Both the position numbers and the translations under genes were made by a program. A stretch of 64,000 nt of DNA, taken from positions 11,416-75,415 of the forward strand of contig BPII01000011.1 of assembly GCA_026004035.1 (NCBI GenBank), in the 5' to 3' direction. Source of the DNA: Candidatus Sericytochromatia bacterium. Lineage in GTDB: Bacteria > Cyanobacteriota > Sericytochromatia > UBA7694 > JACMQJ01. Below the pieces are notes generated by a model. It ran no database searches and was not told the origin of the DNA. It worked only from the letters and a program-made list of their open reading frames with translations. This document shows, one piece after another, positions 10,251 through 58,425 of the stretch (position 1 is the first letter of the stretch; each line of letters begins with the position of its first letter).

Positions 10251-11001
10251 CTATACGGTAGCTTCTTCTTTTTCTAATTCTTGATTATCATCTTCTTTTG
10301 TTTGTTCTAGTGTTTTATTATTTTTACCTTCTATAATAGCATCAGCTATTTTAGAAGTTATTAGTTTTATAGCCTTCATTGAATCATCATTACTTGGTAT
10401 AGGAAAATCTACTAAATCGGGATTACAATTTGTATCAACCATAGCAACTATTGGAATATTTAATTTTCTAGCTTCAGTAACAGCTAAATGTTCTTTTTCT
10501 GTATCTACTACATATAATAAATCAGGTAATCTATTCATTTCCTTTATACCACCTAATGATTTATTTAACTTACTTATTTCTTTTTCAATTTGCGCTATTT
10601 CTTTTTTATTTAGGTTATCAAAATAACCATTATTTTTTTTATCTTCTAAATCCTTTAAGTAAGCTATTCTTGATTTTATTGTATTAAAATTTGTAAGCAT
10701 ACCACCAAGCCATCTATGATTTACATAAAACATATTTGCTCTTAAAGCCTCATCTCTTATGCAATCTTGTGCTTGCTTTTTGGTTCCAACAAATAATACT
10801 ATTGTTGTTTCATTTGAACACATTTTTTTTACAAATGTGTGTGCTTTTTCTAAATAAGTAAGGGTTTTTTTTAGATTTATTATATAGACTTTATTTTTTT
10901 TCTCCAAAAATGAATTGAGCCATTTTCGGATTCCATTTTCTAGTTTGATGTCCAAAATGAACACCAGCTTGTAAAAGCTCTCTTGTTGTAAGATTTAACA
11001 T
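10251..11001 (-). CDS. rpsB: 30S ribosomal protein S2, interrupted by a +1 frameshift in an A8 run
   Basis: The ATG at 11001 (RBS AAGGAG) gives [35 protein letters not shown], then a stop. The rest of S2 ([11 protein letters not shown]...) continues in the track ORF 10251-10964, offset +1. The junction is the T8 run at 10894-10901 on the + strand, which is A8 in the mRNA sense. Confidence 0.9.
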
Positions 11002-11095
11002 AAAATTCTCCTTTTCACAGTTAAAACACCTGTGCTACTAATCTTTAACCAACTTAACTTAGTTGGACTGTGCAGATTATAAACATAGCACATGT
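11002..11095 (-). promoter_or_regulatory. Structured 5' leader of rpsB (candidate autoregulatory element)
   Basis: The RNA sense contains GUGCUA...UAGCAC (6 bp) enclosing the hairpin CCAACU-AAGUUA-AGUUGG. A second hairpin, CACAG-N9-CUGUG, abuts the SD, and an upstream second CACAG copy could compete for the CUGUG strand. The region is relatively GC-rich within an AT-rich spacer. Confidence 0.3.
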
Positions 11096-14069: not shown

Positions 14070-16444
14070 ATGGAAAATAATCAAAAACTTTTAAGAATTT
14101 TAGAAAAAAATTATAAGCTAGAAAGACAAATAGGATCTGGTGGTATGGGTATTGTCTTTCTTGCAACAGATAAAAGATTAGAAAGAAAAGTAGCTATAAA
14201 AGTTTTGAAATTATCAGAAAATAATCAAGACTCAGGAATATCTAAAGAGGAAGTTCTAGAAAGGTTTCTTAGAGAAGCTAGATCAATAGCAAAGTTATCC
14301 CATCCAAATATAGTAAATATATTTGATATAGGAAATGAAGATGAAGTCTATTATATGGTTATGGAATATGTAGATGGATTTGTTTTATCTGACATTCTTA
14401 ATCAAAAAGAAAAAATAGATTATTCGGTTATACTTAATATAATTGTTCAAATTTGTAGTGCTTTAGATTTTGCTCATGAAAATGGAATAATACACAGAGA
14501 TATAAAACCAGCAAATATTATTGTTAGTAAAAAAGGTATAGCAAAATTAATGGATTTTGGAATAGCTACATTAAATAATAAAAAAGAAGCTTATAAACTA
14601 ACTCAAGCAGGTTCTATACTTGGAAGTATTATGTATATTTCACCAGAACAACTTAATGGATTCTAGTGCTGTTACTCCTCAAAGTGATATTTACTCTTTG
14701 GGAATAACTCTTTATGAACTATTAACAGGAGAATTACCTTTTATGTCTGACTCAATAAGTCAAATTGTTTTAAAAATTCTCTCCGAAATGCCTGAAAAAC
14801 CAAGTAAAATAAACCCTGAAATACCTAAAGAACTTGATGATATAATATTTAAAGCTATAAATAAAAAAGCTTCTGAAAGATACCTAAGTGCTTTAGATTT
14901 TGCTAATGATTTAAAAAAATTTATTATTGATTTTGACACAAACTTTATTATACAAAATAATGTAAATAATTCTCATAAAAACCAACAAACAATATTAATT
15001 AATTCTTATAAAGAGGAAAAAACTAGATAATTCTACAGTAATAATTACAAATAAGTTAACTGATACATTAACAAAATTAAAAGAAACAAATACCATAAAA
15101 ACAAAAATAAATGAACAACTAATAAATTCATTAGAAAATGATTTATCATGGATTAAAAATTTAATTTGTGATTGGGAAATAATAAAATCAAATAATAGTA
15201 TTAATGATTTTTTAGAAAAAAAACTTTCTGCAATTATATTAATAAATAATGAAATATTTTTATTTGTTTATGAAGGATTTACAATAGGAGCAGTTAATTC
15301 TGCTAATAGATTACAAGGTCAAGATGTATTTGATAATTTACCAATTGAATATGAAATGACAATATATGTTTCTCCAGAAGATAAATCTTATTTTCCTTTA
15401 ATAATATCAACATTATTTAATTATGAAACACCAATAGATATAAATGTCGATTCTTTAACTGTAGATGTAAGACCTTTAATAGATTCTTTATCATCTAAAG
15501 AAAATCCCTTTACAGGTATAGTCAAATGTTATATTGAAAGTAATATAATATATTATGGTTATTATAAAGGCAAACAAGTATTTAATGTATTAGCTGATAT
15601 TGAAGACGATATTGAAGAAGAAAACTACAAAGATATTAATGTCTTGATATTATATTCTGGAACTTTAATAAATACTTATCCTGTTAAAATAAGTCTTATT
15701 GGACCAAATTTAATAAATCTTTTTAAGGATACTATTATCTTATTGAAATATAACGATAATAATAATAAAAAATTAATTGATATTCTTGATTTAGGAAATG
15801 AAGAAGCACCTAACTTTCTAGTTAAAGAAGTTAAAAATAATACCAACTTAATTATTGAAAATAATAATAAATTTTTAAAAATATTTGATACTGAAATAGA
15901 TACATTAAAAACTATAAAAGAGAGTATTTACTATAAATTTTGTAATTGGCTTATAAATGAATATTTTTATAATATTAATTCTTCATTAAACACATTATCA
16001 TTTAAACCGATATATTCTTTAATACCTTATATAAATAAATTTACTTTTTATCAAAGTTTAAATAATTACTCATTTGAATTTCCTATTTTAATTAAAGGTA
16101 AGTTTAAAAATGATGAAAAGATATTTTTTATTGTTAAAATAGGTAATGGAAGTATACAAGAAGTTAATAAATTTTTAGAAGATATTATCAATTTAAAAAA
16201 CAACTATTTTCTTAAGTCTATTGATTTATCAGGATCATTTTATATATCACTAAGTAAATATGAAAATTATTCTTTAAAAGAATTTTTAGAAAAAACACAG
16301 GATAATAAAAAATCTTTTTTTAGTTTAGATAATACATACAAGTATAAAGGATTTATAAAACTTGGTTATAATAAAGGTATTCAATTACAATTTTTAGAAT
16401 ATATAAACAATAAATTTGAATTAATTGAACCTAAACTACTTTAG
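14070..16444 (+). pseudogene. Ser/Thr protein kinase fused to a ~470-aa uncharacterised C-terminal region, broken by two +1 frameshifts
   Basis: Segment 1 (14070-14666) carries GSGGMGIVF, AIK, HRDIKPANI, DFG and SPEQ. Segment 2 (14620-15030) continues with SDIYSLGITLYELLTG. A stop-free in-frame stretch of more than 100 codons runs from about 15031 into track ORF 15356-16444 and has no ATG/GTG/TTG of its own. The second shift maps to an A6 run at 15017-15022. Confidence 0.75.
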
Positions 16445-28346: not shown

Positions 28347-29718
28347 GTATATAAGGGGTTACCATTAATATTAGCTCTACTTCTGATTCTGACCAAGAAT
28401 TAGCACCAAATAGTGGATCCTAAAAATGGTATGTCACCAAGTATTGGTAATTTTATTTGATCCAGTTGATGTATTTTTTCTTTTTAATCCACCTAGTACT
28501 ATTGACTCACCAGATTTAACTTTCATTGTTGTTTTCAGTTGTCTATCTAAGTGTTTCTGGAACAGGATTACCATTAACAATAACATCTTTACCTCTGCTA
28601 CTTATAGATGGGTTTAATTCTAAAGTAATAAATCCTTCTTCAGTATCTATCATAAGGGTTTAACTTTATGACTATCACCTATTTGTATATTTTAATATGT
28701 TTGAGTTGCTCCTGTTGCTGTTTGTGTTGTTTGTATTATAGGGACGTTTTCAGTTGCGGAAAATTCAGCTTCTTTACCACTTTGAGTAGCTATTCTAGGA
28801 TTAGAAAGAATTTTAGCTTTACTATCAGATATTAAAGCATTTAATTCAGCATTAAATTAGCTGTAAAATTTCTTAATGCTTGAAAATCTAATCTTATACC
28901 TGACGTAGTAACAGGAGGAGCACCTGCATTTGTTAATGCTGATGATTGAATAAGAGACAGTTCCAGCCACCAGCACCTTGTTGCTAAGTGCTTGAGCTGA
29001 ATTATTAAATGCCGCACCAAATTGTTTTTGACCATAGCCATAGCTCATACCTAAGTGTTTTAGCAGCTTGTTCAGTTAACTTCTACTAATTTTATTTCTA
29101 TCATAACTTGAGGTATTTTTTGATCTACTATAGATAATACAGACTCTAAAAAATCCATTTGAACTGGTCTTCCAATTACTGATAATATATTATTTTCATC
29201 AGTTGGTATCATTTCAGGTTTTGTTTTACCAGTAGTATAAAATCTTGTCATTCTTTTTAATAGCTTCTGATGGTTTCATATTTTTAATCTTATAATTTTT
29301 CATTATGGAGTCATCTATACCATTTCTTTTAAGTTCTTCTTCATCTGATATAAATATTGTTCTATTTATTTTTCTTGCTGTTAAACCTTTCATTTGTAAA
29401 ACTATACTTAAAGCTTCGCTTAATTTTACATTACTAAGTTCTATTCTATTAATAGAAGATTCTGTTACTTCTTTTTTACCACCTATTACTAAACTATAGC
29501 CTGTTTGATTCACTAAAGCTTTTAATATATCACTTACAATTGCATCACTGACTTTTAAATTAACATTAGGGTCTTTTTCTAACTTTATTAATGGTGTAAC
29601 TGATGTTTTTGTATTATTTACACTTATAGTTTGACAATCTTTCAGCTGCTAAAGTATTTGTAGATATTCCTAAGACTAAACTTAAAGACAAAATTAATTT
29701 TAATGATTTATTCATCAT
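28300..29718 (-). pseudogene. pilQ: Type IV pilus secretin PilQ, multiply frameshifted
   Basis: ATG at 29718 with RBS AAGGAG and the signal peptide MMNKSLKLILSLSLVLG. Fragments in different frames include the N-domain (track ORF 29226-29513), LNALISDSKAKILSNPRIATQSGKEAEF, KLPILGDIPFLG and the C-terminal ELILMVTPYIL. Confidence 0.8.
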
Positions 29719-29734
29719 ATTCAACTCCTTAGAT

Positions 29735-30727
29735 TTATTCTTCTTCAATTAATAATCTTGCCTTATATATTCCATCTGTTATTAAGAACAGATTTTCTAT
29801 TAAAATCTATAGAAACTATTCTTAATCTATCTCCATTATTATTTATTTCATCACCAACTCCTAGTAATTTACTTTCATCATTTACTGATAAAATAGCTAG
29901 TGGTTTAGTTCCTGTAACTATACCTGTTAATTTTAGATCCTTCTGATAAGTCGTTTTGCTTCTGAGACTAATATTTCTTCTTCTGTATTTTTATTATCAA
30001 CAATAATTTTTTTACCCGCATCTGTTTTTGGTATTTGTACAGGAGGTTTAACTTTGCTTTTATTTGTAGTTAATATTTTTATTATTTATATTTTTAGTAC
30101 AATAGATTATTATTTTTAATTTTAACATCATTTTTACTCGCATCAATTTTTGCTTGTTTCAGTAATGCTTCTCTTTCTTTTTCCATTTTCATAGCTAGTA
30201 AAGCTTTCTTTTCTTCTATTAATTCTTGAGGTACTTCTGGTAAGTTTATCTATTTTTGGTGGTTTCAGAGATATAAAAGGATCTACTCTACCACTATTTA
30301 ATCTTGCTTCTAATATTATCTCTTTAAAATCTTTCTGTTTTATTATTTCATCTTTAGGTAACTTCTACTATTTGTTCTATAGTTGTACTTTGAATTGGTT
30401 CAGGTGTTTGTAAAGGTTCAGGTGTTTTTATAACTTTAGGCGTTTCAATTGGTTCAGCTGTTTTATGATATTTCGATTTTTGGTAGTTTCTTTGACTATT
30501 TTTTCAGTTGGTTTTGGTATGGGTTTTATACTTTCTTTAATAGATATCTGATTGCTTTTATTTGATTTGTAGGTTGCGTTGTTATTGTAGGCGCTAACTG
30601 GTTCAGATGTTTGAATTGGATTATATACAATCTCTTCAGGTTCTTCTATGTAGTAAGAAAGTACATGTAATGATACTGCTGAAGTTATCAGTGCTGGTAA
30701 TATTATAGCATGTTTATTTATATTCAC
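29735..30727 (-). pseudogene. PilP-like pilus assembly protein with extended N-terminal region, frameshifted
   Basis: The N-terminal TM ORF is 30428-30727. The C-terminal piece LKLTGIVTGTKPLAILSVNDESKLLGVGDEI...RLRIVSIDFN resembles the PilP beta-domain. The pieces are in different frames. Confidence 0.45.
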
Positions 30728-30730
30728 TAC

Positions 30731-31400
30731 TTAATTTCCTCCTTCAGGTAAAAGGTAAGCTCTTAAATTAAGAGTTACTTTTAAAGCACTAAATTTATAA
30801 TCATTATCAGTTATAGGTGATAATGATATAGAAGCGGGATTTATAGCTCTTTGGTATTTTTCTAAATCTTTAAATAAACTTATTATATTAGGATAACTTG
30901 ATTCTAATGAAAGGTTTAAAGGAGTTTGACTTAAATTTAAATCAGCAGGTACACCACTTGCTAAATTTGAGGTAAATTAACTCTTTGTATAGAACCTGGG
31001 ACTAAATCAAATAAATCAGATTTATTATTTAATTCAACAAATTTTCCATATCATATATTAATGATGGAAGATTTTCTTTTGTAGGTATTCTTTCTTGTAG
31101 TTTTGCTATTTCTTTATTTAAATCTTCTATTGCTTTTTCTGTTTCATCTATTTTTCTATATCTTTTAGTTGTAGGGTTATAACCTAATTTTGTTTCTAAT
31201 GCTTGATTATCAGAAGATAGTTTTTCATTTTCTTCTAATAAAGTTTGATATTCTGTATATATTGGATATAATAAGTAATATCCTCCACCTAATAAAATTA
31301 GTAGAGATAAAACTCCACCAGCTATTAACTTATAAGATTCAGGTATATTTTTAAAAGAATCTGTATTTATTGTTATACCAAATACTTTTGTTTCTGCCAT
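30731..31400 (-). pseudogene. pilO: Type IV pilus assembly protein PilO, two frameshifts
   Basis: A 123-aa N-terminal ORF (TM plus coiled coil) is followed by VELNNKSDLFDLVPGSIQRVNLPQ and then NLASGVPADLNLSQTPLNLSLESSYPNIISLFKDLEKYQRAINPASISL..., each in a different frame. Confidence 0.6.
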
Positions 31401-31436
31401 TTTTCACCTAATTCATATTAATTTCAAATCTTAGAT

Positions 31437-32097
31437 TAAACTTTAGTTACAGATGAAAATTCTCTATCAACAGCTAAATTATTTTTTAATTTTGAAGAAT
31501 CTACTTTTTCTAAATCTCTTATTTTATATCACTTGTCTTTTTTGTATAATCTAAAACTACATTACTAAATCTTGGAGAATCTTGTATATTTGCAAGAAAT
31601 ATAGCTACTGTTTTATGATCAAAAGTTTCTCCAGACATAGTAATTTTATTTTCATTTATATCTATTTTATCAACCCAAAATTAGATGGTATTCTATCTCT
31701 GATTTCTTCAAGTAATTCTGACCATTTAAAATTACTTCCACTAGCCCATGCTAATATATCTCTTTTTTTCTCTACATTAGTTTTACAGCAAGTTTTTCTG
31801 TAAGAAGTTTATCTTGTTGCTCTAACTCAGCTTTTCTTCTTTCTAATTCTTGTTTTCTTTCAGCTTCTTCATCTCTTAAACTAGTTAAAACTAATATAAC
31901 CTACTGATAAAGCTCATTAAAGATATAAATAAAAATAAAACTGATAATATAATTCCTTTGCTTACTTTAGTTCCAGATATAGTTTTTTCTATTTCTTCTC
32001 TTACTTGATAACCAAGAAGATTTATATTTATTGATACAGTTAAATTTGTTCCTGTAGCAGATTTACTACCATCTTCTTTTTTTTCTAAATCTATCAC
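31437..32097 (-). pseudogene. pilN: Type IV pilus assembly protein PilN, frameshifted
   Basis: The N-terminal ININLLGYQVREE plus a TM helix (68-aa ORF). Later fragments (WSELLEEIRDRIPSNFWVDKIDINENKITMSGETFDHKTVAIFLANIQDSPRFSNVVL) are in other frames. Confidence 0.55.
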
Positions 32098-32140
32098 AGC
32101 TAAAAATTTTTACTCCTTAATCATTATATTTATTCTAACA

Positions 32141-32905
32141 TTATAAATTTAATTTTTCTAAATATAGTTCAAATAAATAATTATTGCTAAAAAAACTTAT
32201 TAAACTTCCAAGAGCTAAAAATGGTCCAAAAGGAAAATAATCACTTTTTTTTCTATATATAGTAAAGAGCTATTCCAAATAAAGAACCCAATAAAAAACC
32301 TATAAATAAAGTACCAAATAAATAGTTAATTCCAAGCCAAGCACCTATCATTGTTGTTAATGTTACATCTCCCAAACCCATTCCTTCTTTTTTTAAAAAA
32401 AATAAACTCCCCTTAGCAATTAAAAACAATAATTAAATATCCTAAAACTGCTCCTAAAATAGAATCAATAATTTTATTATCTAAAAAATTATAAATTATA
32501 CCTATTGCAATACCTGGATAAGTTAAGCTATCTAATATTAACATATAATCTATATCTATCCATGATATTACGATAATAAGACATATAAAATATGTAATAA
32601 AAATCCATTTCCAACTTATACCAAAAGTAAAGAAAGCAATACATAATAATAGAGCTGTTATAAATTCATTTAAAGGATATCTTATACTTATTGTCTTCTT
32701 TACAATATCTACATTTACCCCCTAAAATAATCCAACTTAAAATTGGTATATTATCATAAAACTTTATATCATTATTACATTTAGGACATTTTGAATTTGG
32801 ATATATTATAGATTTTTCTCTTGGAAGTCTATATATAACAACATTTAAAAAACTTCCAAGCATAGAACCAAAAATAAAAATTAATATAATATTTAAAATA
32901 TTCAT
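32141..32905 (-). pseudogene. pilD: Prepilin peptidase (A24 family) PilD, frameshifted
   Basis: The N-terminal Zn-finger region (CPKCNNDIKFYDNIPILSWIILGGKCRYC) is in the 79-aa ORF. The catalytic-region fragment KKEGMGLGDVTLTTMIGAWLG and the C-terminal PFGPFLALGSL are in other frames. Confidence 0.75.
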
Positions 32906-32989
32906 TGAAACCTATTTTGTATTTTATAACCTTAAATAAATTATAATGCTGTGATTATATACACATAAAATATTACTTTTAATTAAGTG

Positions 32990-33530
32990 TTAATTTACCC
33001 CTCTTGATGATAGTAATACAGGAAAAGTTTTAATAAAAATTTTTAAATCAAGACAAAATGATAAATTATTTATATATTCTATATCATATTTTAATTTAGT
33101 ATCAATACTTAAATCATCTCTTCCATGTATTTGTGCCCAACCTGTAAGTCCTGGTTTTACTTTAAAAACATTTTTTTTGTTCTTCTGTATATGTTTTTAC
33201 TATTGAAGGAACTTCTGGTCTAGGTCCTATTAAACTCATTTCACCTTTTAAAATATTTATTAATTGAGGTAATTCATCTATACTAGTTCTTCTTAATATT
33301 TTACCTACTTTTGTTATTCTAGGATCATTATCTTGAGTAAAACTGGTCCAATTTTATCAGCATTTACAACCATTGTTCTAAATTTATAAATTAAAAACTC
33401 CTTTTGATTTTTACCAACTCTTATTTGTTTAAAAAATATTGGTCCATTATCTGTAATTTTATTAGTATAGATACTATTATAAATAAAGGTATTAATAATA
33501 TTAATGAAAATAAAGAAAAAAAAAATCTAA
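32990..33530 (-). pseudogene. Undecaprenyl-phosphate sugar phosphotransferase (bacterial sugar transferase family), multiply frameshifted
   Basis: The fragments [65 protein letters not shown] and KPGLTGWAQIHGRDD lie in three frames. Confidence 0.75.
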
Positions 33531-33566
33531 TAATGGTTTAATTTTTATATACATTAAAATATAATT

Positions 33567-34885
33567 TTATATACCTATACAAAAATACTCAAAACCTAAT
33601 TGTTTCATTGTGTCTAATTCATACTGATTTCTACCATCAAATATAACAGGATTTTTTCAATAATAATTTCATCTTATTAAAATTAGGTCTTCTAAATTGT
33701 GGCCATTCTGTAACAAGTACAAGAAAGTCAGCATTTTCTAAACATTTGTACATATCTTGATTAAATTCAATTCTTAAATTGTCTTTAAAATACAATTTAG
33801 TTTTTTCAATAGCTTCTGGATCAAAAGCTGATATATAGGCATTTAAAACTTAAAAGTTTTTCTATTATTTTTAAAGAAGGAGCTTCTCTTATATCATCAG
33901 TATAAGGTTTATATGAAAGTCCCCAAATTGCAACTTTCATATTTTCAATACTATTGAATCTTTTCAAGATTTTATTTATTAGTATTAATTTTTGTTTATC
34001 ATTAACTTCCTTAGTAGCTTTAATAATTTTAGAACTATAGCCTTTTTCTTCAGCTATATAGTCAAGAATTTTTATATCTTTTGGAAAACAAGAACCACCA
34101 AAGCCAATACCTGGAAATAAAAATTTATGACCTATTCTACTATCATAAGACATTCCTTTTCTAACATTATTAATATTTGCTCCTAAAATCTCACATATAT
34201 TTGCTATTTCGTTTATAAAAGAAATTTTCATTGCTAAAAAAGCATTAGAAGCATACTTTGTCATCTCAGCTGATTTTATATCCATTTCAAGTATTGGATT
34301 ATCATTTCTAACAAATGGCAAGTATAATTCTTTCAGTACTTTTAAAGATTTCTGTGTTTCAAAACCTATTACTATTCTATCAGGTTTCATAAAATCTTCA
34401 ATTGCTGATCCTTCTTTAAGAAATTCAGGATTACTTAAAACATCAAATTCTAATTTTAAATTTCTTTTTTCTAAAGAATCTTTTATAATATTTTTTATAG
34501 TTTCACAAGTCCCTACTGGTGCTGTAGATTTATTAACAATAATTTTATAATCATTTATATTTTCTCCAATATCTTTAGCTACTTTTAAAAGATTTTTTAA
34601 ATTTGGTTTTCCTTCTTCATTAGAAGGAGTATCTACTGTTATAAAAACAATTGAAGAATTATCTAAAGCATATTTAATATTTGTAGAAAAAACTAATCTC
34701 TTTTCTTTTATATTTTTTTTTATTAATTCTTCAAGTCCTTTTTCATATATTACTGATTGACCTTTTGATAATTTATTTATTTTATCTTCATTAATATCTA
34801 CACAAATAACATTATTGCCCATTTCGGCAAAACATGTGCCTGTAACTAATCCAACATAACCAGTACCTATTATACAAAGATTCAT
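33567..34885 (-). pseudogene. ugd: UDP-glucose 6-dehydrogenase, C-terminal third displaced by two +1 frameshifts
   Basis: The 354-aa ORF has IIGTGYVGLVTG and GFGGSCFPKD. The continuation is NAYISAFDPEAIEKTKLYF...VLVTEWPQFR, then NPVIFDGRNQYELDTMKQLGFEYFCIGI* in shifted frames. The second shift is in a T6 run at 33652-33657 (A6 in the mRNA sense). Confidence 0.8.
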
Positions 34886-38690: not shown

Positions 38691-38712
38691 TTTTTTTTTT
38701 TTTTTTTTTTTT
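38691..38712. repeat. T22 homopolymer
   Basis: 22 consecutive T in the spacer upstream of hppA. Confidence 0.95.
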
Positions 38713-39250: not shown

Positions 39251-39410
39251 TAATTTAATACCTTGAACATTTTAATATAATTTGACAAACAAGATTAATA
39301 TATGATATCTCTAAATTTTGCTAATTTTGATGACAAAAAATTAAATAAAACTCAAAGAAAACTATTCTCAATTATCAATTATAAACTTAGAATTCATAAT
39401 GAAAAACTAC
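39251..39410. repeat. ~158-bp repeat, copy 1 (inverted relative to 53012-53168)
   Basis: The reverse complement of 39313-39410 appears identical to 53012-53109 (about 98 nt). The remaining ~60 nt match with scattered substitutions and a 2-nt indel. Confidence 0.85.
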
Positions 39411-39563: not shown

Positions 39564-41550
39564 CTAAAGAATAAAGTTCATTAAATTATAAGTTAAAAAA
39601 GCTGATATATAAGCAAATATTGTCATATAAATAAACATATAAATAGAATATTTCCAATGTCCTGTTTCTTTTTTAACAATAACTAGTGTGCTCATACATT
39701 GACAACAAAAAGCAAAAAATATTAATAATGAACAAGCAAGAGGAAGAGTATATATAGGTTTATTTGTTATTGGATCTTTTTCTTGTAAAAGTCTTTCTTT
39801 CAAAGATTTTGAGTTTTCATCTACATCACCTAAAGAATATATAGTTCCTAATGCAGATATAAAAAGTTCTCTAGCACCAAAAGCTACACTTATTCCAACA
39901 CCTATCTTCCAATCATAACCTAAAGGTCTTATTATAGGCTCAATAGCTTTTCCAAATTGTCCTATAAAAGAATTTTCAAGTTTTATTGAAGCTATTTCTT
40001 CACTTGATTTATTTATTAGTAATTCTTCTTTTGGATTAGGATAAATAGATAAAAACCATATTATTATTGATAATAAAAATATTATACTACCAGCTTTTTT
40101 TAAAAAAACTTTTCCTTGTCTAATCATTTGTTTATAAGCAACTTTTAATCTTGGTATTTGATATAAAGGCATTTCCATAAAGAAAGACTTAGATTTACTT
40201 TTAAAAAAAGATAATCTAAATATTTTTGCAAAAATTAAAGCAATAAAACTACCTAAAAAATACATAAAAAATAAAGCTAATCCTTGAGTATCTATAAATC
40301 CAAATATTTTATATGAAGGTATAAATATTCCTATAAGTAAGACATAGACAGGTAGTCTAGCACTACAAGTTATAAATGGTAAAACCATCAATGTTGCCAT
40401 TCTTTCAGCTTTATCAGGTATTGTTCTAGTAGCCATAATTGCAGGCACAGAACAAGCAAAACCAGAGAGAAAAGGTAAAAATGCTTTACCATTTAAACCA
40501 AAGTATGACATAAATTTATCGGTTATAAAAGCAGCTCTTGATATATAACCAGATTGTTCCATTAAACTTAATAAGAAAAATAATATCATTATTTGTGGTA
40601 AAAATACTAATACTCCTCCAACCCCAGCAAAAATTCCATCAACTACAAGGCTTTTTAAAGTTTCATTTTCTATAAATTTACCTACAAAATTACCAATTTC
40701 TGATATTGAGTTTTCTAAAAAACTCATTAATGGTTGAGAAAATGTATATAATGATTGAAATACTAGAAAAAATATTAATACAAAAAATATAAATCCTTTT
40801 ACAGGATGTAGTAAAACTTTATCAATTTTATATGATATATCAGCTATTTTTAAAGTTTTATTACCTATAACTTCATTAATTATATATCTAGCTTGCAACT
40901 GATATTTTTTCATTTTTTCAATTATATATTCTTCATCAACTAAATTAATGTTTTGTGGATTACTAGGTAATAAACTCAATGACTTATTAGTAATTTCAAG
41001 TGATTTTATAACATTATTATTTGCAGTTTTTTTAGCTTCATTATGCAAAAAATTACTTATTTTTTTTTTTTGCTTCTTCTTCATTAATTGTTGAACATAA
41101 TAAAACCTTTAAACCTAAATATTCTTCTAACTTTTTTAAATTTATATCTTTATATGATAATAAATCAGATTTATTAACTATTACTAAAATATCTTCATTA
41201 TTTATTATTTCTTTAACTGCTAAAATTAAAGATATACCAGCTTCTAACTTTGATGAATCTACTATTATTACAACTTTACTAAAGTCTTTAATATTTTCAT
41301 TTAGTTTTAATAGTGTCCCTATTGTAACAGCTTCATCTAAAGTTGTAGGTATTAGATTATATACTCCAGGTAAATCTATTATTTTTATTTTTTGTTCTTC
41401 AGAATAATTTTTATTATCACTTAATTCAGCTATTGCATAATCTACACTTATACCTGAATAGTTTGAAACTTTTCTTGATTTTCCAGAAAGTATGTTAAAT
41501 ATACTTGATTTTCCAGAATTTGGAAATCCAAGAAGAAGAAAGTTTTTCAT
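39564..41550 (-). CDS. feoB: Ferrous iron transporter FeoB, split by a +1 frameshift in an A12 run
   Basis: The G-domain ORF is 41053-41550 (GFPNSGKSS, DLPG, NKSD). The membrane-domain ORF is 39564-41084. They overlap at the T12 run 41060-41071 (A12 in the mRNA sense). Reading A11 gives a continuous ...EEEAKKKISNFLH... Confidence 0.85.
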
Positions 41551-53035: not shown

Positions 53036-53168
53036 GTTTATAATTGATAATTGAGAATAGTTTTCTTTGAGTTTTATTTAATTTTTTGTCATCAAAATTA
53101 GCAAAATTTGGGGATATCATATTAATCTTGTTTGTTGAATTATGTTAATGTTTAAGGTATTGTAAATA
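53012..53168. repeat. ~158-bp repeat, copy 2
   Basis: See copy 1 (39251-39410). Confidence 0.85.
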
Positions 53169-55174: not shown

Positions 55175-57404
55175 ATGAAGATACTAATATTTTCAATATA
55201 TAATCAACCTGAACAATTAATAAGTTCTTTTAAAGTATATGAAAGTAATAAAAATGAAGATGTGTATTTTTTAAATTGTTCAAATTCTTTAAAATTTTGT
55301 GATATTAATTCTGATAATTATTTTCAAAAATGTTTTGAATGTATTGCTGACAAATTTTTTTTGTTTAGATTATTTAATATTGAAGAAAAAAAATTAATTG
55401 ATATTGATAGTTATGAAAAAATAAATGTTGATATTCCTTTATTTGATAGTATAGACGATTTAAAATCATTTACTTATAATAATATAAATTATGGTTTATA
55501 TGCTTATAAATCTGTTGTAAATATTACAAAGAAAGAAAAATTTAATATTAAATTTGTAAGATACCTTATAAAAAATATAATAAATGAAGCAATAAATTTT
55601 TATAATAAAATTTCAAATATTATTGATAATATAAAACCTGATAAATTTTATATATATAAGAATAATAGTATAATTTACTTACCGATTATAGAACTTGCTT
55701 TAATCAAAAATATTGAAACAATAACTTTTTATGTAGATAATAATGTTTTATATTTTTACAATGCAAAAACTAATGAACAATTAAATTACAATATTTTTTT
55801 AGAAAAAATTGATAATGAATATCTTATTAATGGCCAAAAAATTAGTAAAATTATTTATGCTAGAACTAAAAATGAAATTTTAAAGGCTATCGTTAAGTAT
55901 AATCATGACTTGTTTTCTAATAACGTTGAAACTTTTAAATTTTTTAGAGATTTAGAAAAACAAAATTTTTGGACAGAAGAAGAATCTAATATTATCAAAA
56001 ATAAAGTTTTAGAAATATATAATAAATTAGATAAAAAGAGCAAAGAAGCAAAAGAAAATGTAAAAATAAGTGCATGTATGATAGTTAAAAATGAAGAGAA
56101 AAATTTAGAAAGATGTCTTAATAGTATAAAAAATATTGTAGATGAAATAATAATATTAGATACAGGTTCAACAGATAATACCATTAATATAGCAAAGAAA
56201 TATACTTCAAAAATTTTTGAATATAAATGGAAAGACGATTTTTCTGATGCAAGAAATAAAAGTATTTCTTATGCAAAAAATGATTGGATACTAATAATAG
56301 ATGCTGACGAAGAGCTAACAGAAAATACTCAAAAAAATCTTTTAATAACAATATATGATGAACCATTATTTAAAGAAGAACTTGTATTTTGGTTTAAATG
56401 TTTTAATAAATATCCAAATGAACAAGAAAGCACTTTTTACTTTAAACACTTTTTATTCAATAAAAAACATGGATTTGTATTTGAAGGAAAAGTTCATGAA
56501 TATTTGGTTAATCCTAATCAAAAAGAGAAAGATAAAGTTTTTAAAAAAACATCTACATCAATTCACAGTAAATCATTATTGTAATACTGAAAAAAACAAA
56601 GAAAAATCTAAATATTATTTACAAATTCTAGAAGATCAGTTAAATTTTGAAAAAACTTTAAAAGGTAAAATATCTATATTAAGTCATTTAGCTAATGAAT
56701 ATCAAAAAGTAGGAGATTCTGATAAAGCATTTAAAACTCTTTTAGAATGTCATAATTTGTTCCAAAAAGATAAAGAATTAAAATCTACATTAACATATAT
56801 TTCCAATTTAATAAGTATATCAGCAAATTTAATATTTAATCAGCTTAATTTTGAAAAAGCAAGAAAATATGTTGATGAAGCTCTTGAGTTAATAGAAGAT
56901 CATAACTTTACAGATGCTTTTTATTTAAAAGCTCTTATAGAACATAATACAAATAATTATCAAAAAGCTATTGATTTATACATTAAACTAATAAATCTTT
57001 TTAGAAGTAGTAATTTTGATAAAGAAAGTTCTTATGGCTTAAGTTCAAAAGGTAAAACATTATATCCTTTTACAGTAATACAACTTTATAAGCTTTATAT
57101 GACTCTTAATAAAGAAAGCTTAGCTTTAAATGTTTTACTAGGTAATGAGAATAATTACTATTTAGTTAATATGTATGTAATAAAACATTTTCTTTTAAAG
57201 AGAGATTTAAAAAATTCTGCAAATGCTTATTTTAGAAACATATTAATAAGTCAAAAAAATAAAGATTTATTGTACAAATTATTAAGTGAAAATAAATATA
57301 AGCAAGCTATTTATCAAATGATTAATGAATTGCTAAACACTAAAGAAGTATTTTCTGATGATGATAAAGAAGAATTACAAAAATTACTACAAAGTATTAT
57401 TTAA
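55175..57404 (+). CDS. Unknown N-domain / GT2 glycosyltransferase / TPR fusion, +1 frameshift at an A7 run
   Basis: The GT2 core is ISACMIVKNEEKNLERCLNSI...ILDTGSTDNT...IDADEEL. ORF 55175-56584 and ORF 56355-57404 join as ...KDKVFKKHLHQFTVNHYCNTEKNKEKSKYYLQILE if the A7 run at 56543-56549 is read as A6. The C-terminus is TPR-like. Confidence 0.75.
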
Positions 57405-58425
57405 ATTATTAATAGTATTTTTATTTTTAATAACTAATAATTCAATTGCTAATGCAAAACTAATTGATTACATATTTTTTAAAGATACATTTAACGGAAA
57501 AAAAATTAATTGTCATGCTATAAAAGTTGATTTAAATCATCCTTTTGTAAAAATAGATTTAGCTTTAGCATATAATAATACAAATAGAAGAGAAACCGTA
57601 AAAAGTATGGCTAAAAGAACAGGGGCTTTAGTTGCTATTAATGGAAGTTTTTTTCATTCTAGAAGAGGAATAGATAGTGTTGTCGGATTACTTATTTCTA
57701 ATAATATTGTTTTAGCTGATTCAGGTCATAGAAGAACATCTTTAGGAATAACAGAAGATAGAAAAATAATTATTGGAATACCAAAGATAAGAAATATACT
57801 AGTTTTACCTGAATTAGGTAAAGTTTTTAAAATAAATGGTATAAATCAGATTAGAGGTAATAAACACTTAACAATATATAATAGATATTTTGGTACTCAT
57901 ACAAGAACTAATAAACTAGGAAGAGAAATATTGGTAGATAAAAATAATATGATAGTTGCTTATAAAATAAAAAATTCTCCGATACCTCAAGGTGGATTTG
58001 TTATATCAATAGATAAAGCAGGTTCTGAAATTGCAGAAGAGTTTCCATTAGGTGCAAGAGTATATATTGATTCTATAAGAGAAGCAGAATGGAAAAATGT
58101 TAGAACACTTATAACAGGTAGTCCTCAATTAGTTAAAAATGGTAAAATTTATAACACATTTTTTAAAGAAAAACTTAATCCTTCTATAAAATATCCAGCT
58201 CAAAGAAGTGCTATTGGTTTAACACATAATAATAAATTTATTATGCTTACTGCTATAGGAAAATTAACACTGACAAAACTTGCTCAAATTATGAAAAGAT
58301 TAGGTTGTATAGAAGCTTTAGCTTTAGATGGTGGTGGTTCTGTAGATTTATATATGAAAGGTAAAAATATTACAAATAACAATAGACCTGTTACAAACTC
58401 AATTATAGTTAGACTTGAAAATTAG
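57358..58425 (+). CDS. Phosphodiester glycosidase (NAGPA/DUF2233) family protein, secreted
   Basis: A signal peptide, then AINGSFF, SPQLVKNGK, RSAIGLT and ALALDGGGS. Confidence 0.75.
   Translation: MMIKKNYKNYYKVLFKLLIVFLFLITNNSIANAKLIDYIFFKDTFNGKKINCHAIKVDLNHPFVKIDLALAYNNTNRRETVKSMAKRTGALVAINGSFFHSRRGIDSVVGLLISNNIVLADSGHRRTSLGITEDRKIIIGIPKIRNILVLPELGKVFKINGINQIRGNKHLTIYNRYFGTHTRTNKLGREILVDKNNMIVAYKIKNSPIPQGGFVISIDKAGSEIAEEFPLGARVYIDSIREAEWKNVRTLITGSPQLVKNGKIYNTFFKEKLNPSIKYPAQRSAIGLTHNNKFIMLTAIGKLTLTKLAQIMKRLGCIEALALDGGGSVDLYMKGKNITNNNRPVTNSIIVRLEN

Follow-up and report, generated by a model that had tools for sequence, protein, structure and literature searches.

The gene for ribosomal protein S2 (rpsB) is the first gene of a standard rpsB-tsf-pyrH-frr-cdsA cluster in the window, by which we mean the whole 64-kb stretch of DNA analysed here, and as deposited it is divided between two reading frames (Table 1). 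The 5' segment encodes S2 residues 1-35 plus one extra lysine and closes at a TAA codon (10893-10891) lying immediately 3' of a run of eight adenines, and the 3' segment continues in the +1 frame to a stop codon at 10253-10251, inside an ORF that the ORF list places at 10251-10964. The initial annotation had reported just such a +1 frameshift downstream of a good ribosome-binding site and ATG, and the deposited sequence agrees with that report in every detail. It had also held that one A fewer would restore the protein; deleting one A from the A8 run does yield a 249-aa S2 with the expected junction, and this repaired protein aligned to the window by tblastn with residues 1-35 in frame -2 and residues 21-249 in frame -3.

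Table 1. Features of the rpsB locus, interrupted genes, and differences between the window and the Logan assembly of the same reads
Feature	Position	Strand	Details
Shine-Dalgarno AAGGAG	11008..11013	-	Read from sequence; 6 nt upstream of rpsB ATG
rpsB ATG	11001-10999	-	Start codon, read from sequence
rpsB 5' segment	10891..11001	-	Frame 0, 36 codons + TAA; ORF list, tblastn 100% identity
A8 homopolymer (T8 on + strand), rpsB	10894..10901	-	Frameshift site; in-frame length A7; discordant: window A8, Logan A7
rpsB 3' segment	10251..10900	-	+1 frame; S2 residues about 36-249 including stop codon
Substitution	10310	-	CTA (Leu) in window, ATA (Ile) in Logan; blastn, the only one against the Logan rpsB contig
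Ser/Thr protein kinase	14070-15030	+	Two overlapping ORFs, junction about 14640-14666
Discordant homopolymer, intergenic	38691..38712	+	Window T22, Logan 23
feoB	39564-41550	-	Split at A12 run 41060-41071
TPR/glycosyltransferase-2 gene	55175-57404	+	One 686-aa protein in Logan
Discordant homopolymer, TPR/glycosyltransferase-2 gene	56543..56549	+	Window A7, Logan A6
Discordant homopolymer, same gene	57206..57208	+	Window T3, Logan T4
Substitution	58404		NAGPA-domain ORF 57358-58425; window versus Logan

GenBank annotates the two pieces separately under KatS3mg068_ locus tags, the 5' piece as a 36-aa 'hypothetical protein' (GIW22605.1, exact match) and the 3' piece as a 218-aa S2 with a TTG start (GIW22604.1, exact match). 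The Pfam model Ribosomal_S2 (PF00318) matches the deposited truncated S2 (P0002) as well as the intact product of the second assembly described below, and S2 homologues at E<=1e-40 number in the thousands. A tblastn search of the 64-kb window with the repaired protein found no second S2 copy.

The source assembly and a second assembly of its reads

The window is part of a 78,297-bp contig of KatS3mg068, a genome recorded as Candidatus Sericytochromatia bacterium. Kato et al. (2022; PMC9671151) sequenced sediment from the Katase hot spring on one PacBio Sequel II SMRT cell and assembled the CCS reads above Q20 with metaFlye 2.8.3; they make no mention of polishing or of short-read data. The supplementary table of that study lists KatS3mg068 as a 'medium' quality genome of 46 contigs, 2.64 Mb and 2,801 CDS, with a read coverage of 3.97x, completeness of 73%, contamination of 4.3%, a GC fraction of 0.2415 and GTDB taxonomy o__UBA7694; f__JACMQJ01 (PMC9671151). 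At 3.97x about four reads determine the consensus of each homopolymer, and some of them may be only 99% accurate; residual HiFi errors are concentrated in homopolymers (DeepConsensus preprint, bioRxiv 10.1101/2021.08.31.458403). The window holds 59 A/T runs of at least 8 bases. We also observed that 24.2% GC is an extreme base composition for a lineage filed under Cyanobacteria/Sericytochromatia.

A second assembly of these reads is available from Logan under run DRR290133, the only DDBJ dataset in the data-availability statement of the BASALT paper, whose hot-spring HiFi dataset cites Kato 2022 (PMC10928208). Within it, the neighbouring tsf protein led us to a contig of 7,347 bp (DRR290133_300934; hereafter L001) that aligned by blastn to window positions 14735-7388 with 99.973% identity over 7,347 bp, the differences being one gap and one substitution. 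The sole gap is the A-run in rpsB, where L001 has A7 against A8 in the window, and rpsB in L001 is a single intact 249-aa PF00318 protein; no Logan protein matching either of the two A8-derived fragments was found. Logan is built with k=31 and discards k-mers seen once (PMC12424806); every 31-mer kept was thus seen at least twice, and at least two reads must contain the A7 junction. The initial annotation had named A7 in high-accuracy DNA reads as the observation that would speak against a real frameshift, and the closest approach to that observation, an assembly of the same HiFi run, does carry A7.

Extending the comparison to five Logan contigs of DRR290133 (31,581 bp compared) revealed six differences, namely four indels, all of them in homopolymers, and two substitutions (Table 1). 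All three indels that fall in coding sequence break the frame in the window version and none does so in Logan (3/3 versus 0/3). The 4:2 ratio of indels to substitutions, together with this one-sided damage, fits consensus error and not natural strain variation. For the ugd ORF, the pilO-like ORF and a 1092-aa ORF, no Logan contig was found, so that the comparison bears on sequence outside 14.7-34 kb and 48-53 kb.

Other interrupted genes and irregularities in the window

Several other genes on the contig are interrupted, and they do not all behave as rpsB does. The TPR/glycosyltransferase-2 gene resembles it: the A7 run of the window divides this gene into two overlapping ORFs and the T3 run alters its end, and Logan has one protein there. 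The feoB gene, by comparison, is separated at its A12 run into a 165-aa G-domain ORF (41053-41550) and a 506-aa membrane ORF (39564-41084) that overlap by 32 nt, and unlike the rpsB A8 this A12 is also in the Logan assembly. Among the 120 best matches, all 119 complete feoB homologues are fused proteins of 641-689 aa, and an 87% identical relative has 11 nt (TAAAAATAAAA) at the A12 site, from which it follows that A11 would be in frame in feoB. The A12 run has two possible readings: a true +1 frameshift, in a tract prone to slippage, or a miscall that at least two HiFi reads have in common.

The Ser/Thr protein kinase gene is broken in a different manner. Its two ORFs cover Pfam Pkinase positions 1-169 and 169-252, and the junction lies outside any homopolymer, at GGATTCTAG, where GGA-GA-TTCT or TTA-TGG would be in frame. 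The junction is identical in the Logan contig, and we regard the split as probably a genuine frameshift or pseudogene. The kinase frameshift (at about 14650) and the feoB A12 are the two shared by Logan and the window, and their reproduction by Logan means that not every broken gene here is an artefact of metaFlye alone.

A further irregular stretch occupies 28400-34885 on the minus strand, where about 6 kb contain short ORFs only. Fragments of a secretin (pilQ), a prepilin peptidase (pilD, in at least two pieces) and a pilO-like gene were recognised there, such that the type IV pilus cluster at 28.4-33 kb appears shredded, and ugd, encoding UDP-glucose dehydrogenase (33600-34885), is in three pieces, each join of which is repaired by deleting one A (sites at an AAA at about 33843 and an A6 at about 33652). 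Logan gave no contig for the 28400-34885 stretch, the nearby contig L086 stopping at 33955, and the stretch looks like one of very thin read support instead of a pseudogene island.

Two further observations complete this survey. The intergenic T22 run, of uncertain true length, lies upstream of the H+-pyrophosphatase gene and is longer than is usual for homopolymers in bacterial genomes. A small dispersed repeat of about 85 nt occurs at 39257-39342 and 53080-53161 in opposite orientation with about 88% identity, and the start of one Logan contig (L088) matches both copies.

Relatives' S2 genes and the origin of the extra adenine

Comparing the site across related S2 genes revealed the same in-frame arrangement in each. 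An in-frame G-A7-C stands at the same codons in an S2 gene at 85% identity (JGI contig L084) and in S2 genes at 80% identity (JGI L082 and Logan L083), these 80-85% relatives being three independent contigs, and a more distant relative at 65% identity (L002) has GAAAGAAAC at the corresponding site, likewise in frame. With L001 included, rpsB is in frame in L001, L082, L083, L084 and L002, and the frameshift is seen only in this deposit. From these sequences we take A7 to be the ancestral in-frame state, as is expected from GAA AAA AAT/C in an AT-rich genome. As to how near these relatives are, among the best 80 of more than 600 matches in GTDB representative genomes the closest S2 was 65% identical, and closer relatives (80-87%) were present only on short metagenome contigs (JGI 3300036768, 3300044993 and 3300002925; Logan SRR11728137).

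We therefore favour, with a probability of roughly 90%, the explanation that the extra A in rpsB is a homopolymer-length consensus error in a metaFlye/HiFi genome of about 4x coverage. It rests on how the genome was assembled and at what coverage, on the A8 of the deposit against the A7 of the second assembly and of the relatives, and on the further homopolymers that are discordant. Under this explanation the organism's rpsB would carry an in-frame A7 (GAA AAA AAT, read as E K N) and would give a normal 249-aa S2, translated conventionally from the AAGGAG/ATG at 11001 with no recoding mechanism, and any reads supporting A8 would be miscalls and not a minority allele. At least some read signal for A8 probably does exist, given that metaFlye output A8, and almost certainly the A8 does not reflect the organism's own DNA. 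The initial annotation had offered a homopolymer miscall, transcriptional slippage and ribosomal frameshifting without ranking them; the first of these is the one that the comparisons uphold, and the other two fare poorly, as follows.

The strongest competitor is that A8 is a real allele in some or all cells and that RNA polymerase slippage on the A-run yields functional S2, where transcripts with one A fewer or two more would restore the frame, as in insect endosymbionts. A genome of 24% GC with many long A/T runs is a plausible setting for this, a second frameshift in a long A-run (the feoB A12) is common to both assemblies, and the substitution at 10310, which lies 590 bp from the A-run, is compatible with two haplotypes and could reflect their co-existence instead of a read error. 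However, at least two reads of DRR290133 have A7, so that the genomic frameshift was not reproduced; it is missing from all relatives compared; and the 4:2 ratio between assemblies, with every coding indel breaking the window version only, fits sequencing error and not natural variation. For a ribosomal protein needed in stoichiometric amounts, correction of only a small fraction would also be a heavy cost. Rescue of this kind has been documented in Buchnera and Blochmannia, where long poly(A) runs gave 12-50% corrected transcripts (PMC5009743), but the rpsB run has 8 A's and the bacterial slippage runs in that review have 9 A's or T's (PMC5009743). Taken together, we consider slippage on a real A8 allele unlikely. 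For a real A8 sub-population in particular, with S2 restored either by polymerase slippage or by a +1 slip of tRNA-Lys on the A-run, our expectation is decidedly low.

Another possibility is a programmed +1 frameshift of the prfB (RF2) type, in which the ribosome would pause at the TAA, the tRNA-Lys on AAA would shift, and the GGAG would assist. The deposited sequence does place a slippery A-run directly before the stop (AAA AAA TAA A) with GGAG just upstream, and slipping by +1 within the run would restore the wild-type GEKNK. Against it, every orthologue examined is in frame, including one assembled from the same reads, and for this absence from orthologues the prfB-like site was rejected. 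Moreover, the GGAG encodes a conserved Gly-Glu and ends 5 nt before the last AAA codon, where in prfB the spacing from the Shine-Dalgarno-like element to the shift codon is 3 nt, and no regulatory logic is known for S2. The AAA AAA TAA A 'site' arises because one A has been added to GGA GAA AAA AAT AAA and is a trivial by-product of that addition, which leaves programmed frameshifting highly improbable.

Equally improbable is the reading that rpsB here is a true pseudogene and that an intact second rpsB elsewhere in the genome supplies S2. The genome is 73% complete, which leaves room for a second copy, and the window holds some probably real pseudogenes, such as the kinase. The window contains no second S2, however, and the copy in question sits in the canonical rpsB-tsf-pyrH-frr cluster without decay, one indel and one conservative substitution being all that sets it apart from the intact rpsB of Logan. 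An alternative genetic code was rejected, as TGG encodes Trp, table 11 gives full-length neighbours and the stop involved is TAA.

Significance and comparison with known systems

As a consensus error, the rpsB frameshift would not be a real biological feature and would have little biological significance. Its practical value is as a warning. Set against another assembly of the reads it was built from, KatS3mg068 differs in homopolymer length about once every 8 kb, often enough for an essential marker gene to end up as a 'hypothetical protein' next to a truncated S2. Searches for recoding events or pseudogenes can be expected to keep returning such false positives where AT-rich organisms are represented by low-coverage HiFi or metaFlye genomes. 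Were the A8 real, an essential ribosomal protein would, unusually, rely on slippage, and the evidence points the opposite way. If an A8 sub-population does exist, it and the feoB A12 would carry the poly(A) rescue seen in endosymbionts over to a free-living environmental bacterium and, with rpsB, to a ribosomal protein that is essential.

Among known systems, the rpsB case is most like the long-read artefacts in which homopolymer indels split gene calls, a known problem of such assemblies (PMC9262707). As in those, an A/T homopolymer is altered in length by one base within a low-coverage, long-read-only assembly, the gene is called separately as two adjacent ORFs, and other genes on the contig are hit likewise. 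It departs from the usual artefacts in that the platform here is PacBio HiFi, usually deemed accurate enough without polishing, and we attribute the homopolymer problem in this case to the coverage of about 4x, the Q20 read filter and the 24% GC genome. The likeness to prfB (RF2), where a stop also directly follows a shift-prone codon and a Shine-Dalgarno-like GGAG also lies upstream as in the deposited rpsB, ends there, as the rpsB 'site' is unconserved, has the wrong spacing and no autoregulatory rationale, and vanishes on removing one base.

The poly(A) frameshifts of Buchnera and Blochmannia are a further point of comparison, and some of them are conserved between strains. As summarised in a review (PMC5009743) of work by Tamas et al. 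(2008), these likewise combine an AT-rich genome, a +1 shift in an A-run and a gene that ought to be needed. In the cases that the review summarises, the frameshift was confirmed in genomic DNA and the tracts were long (PMC5009743), whereas the rpsB run is 8, the same reads also give A7 and the relatives are in frame.
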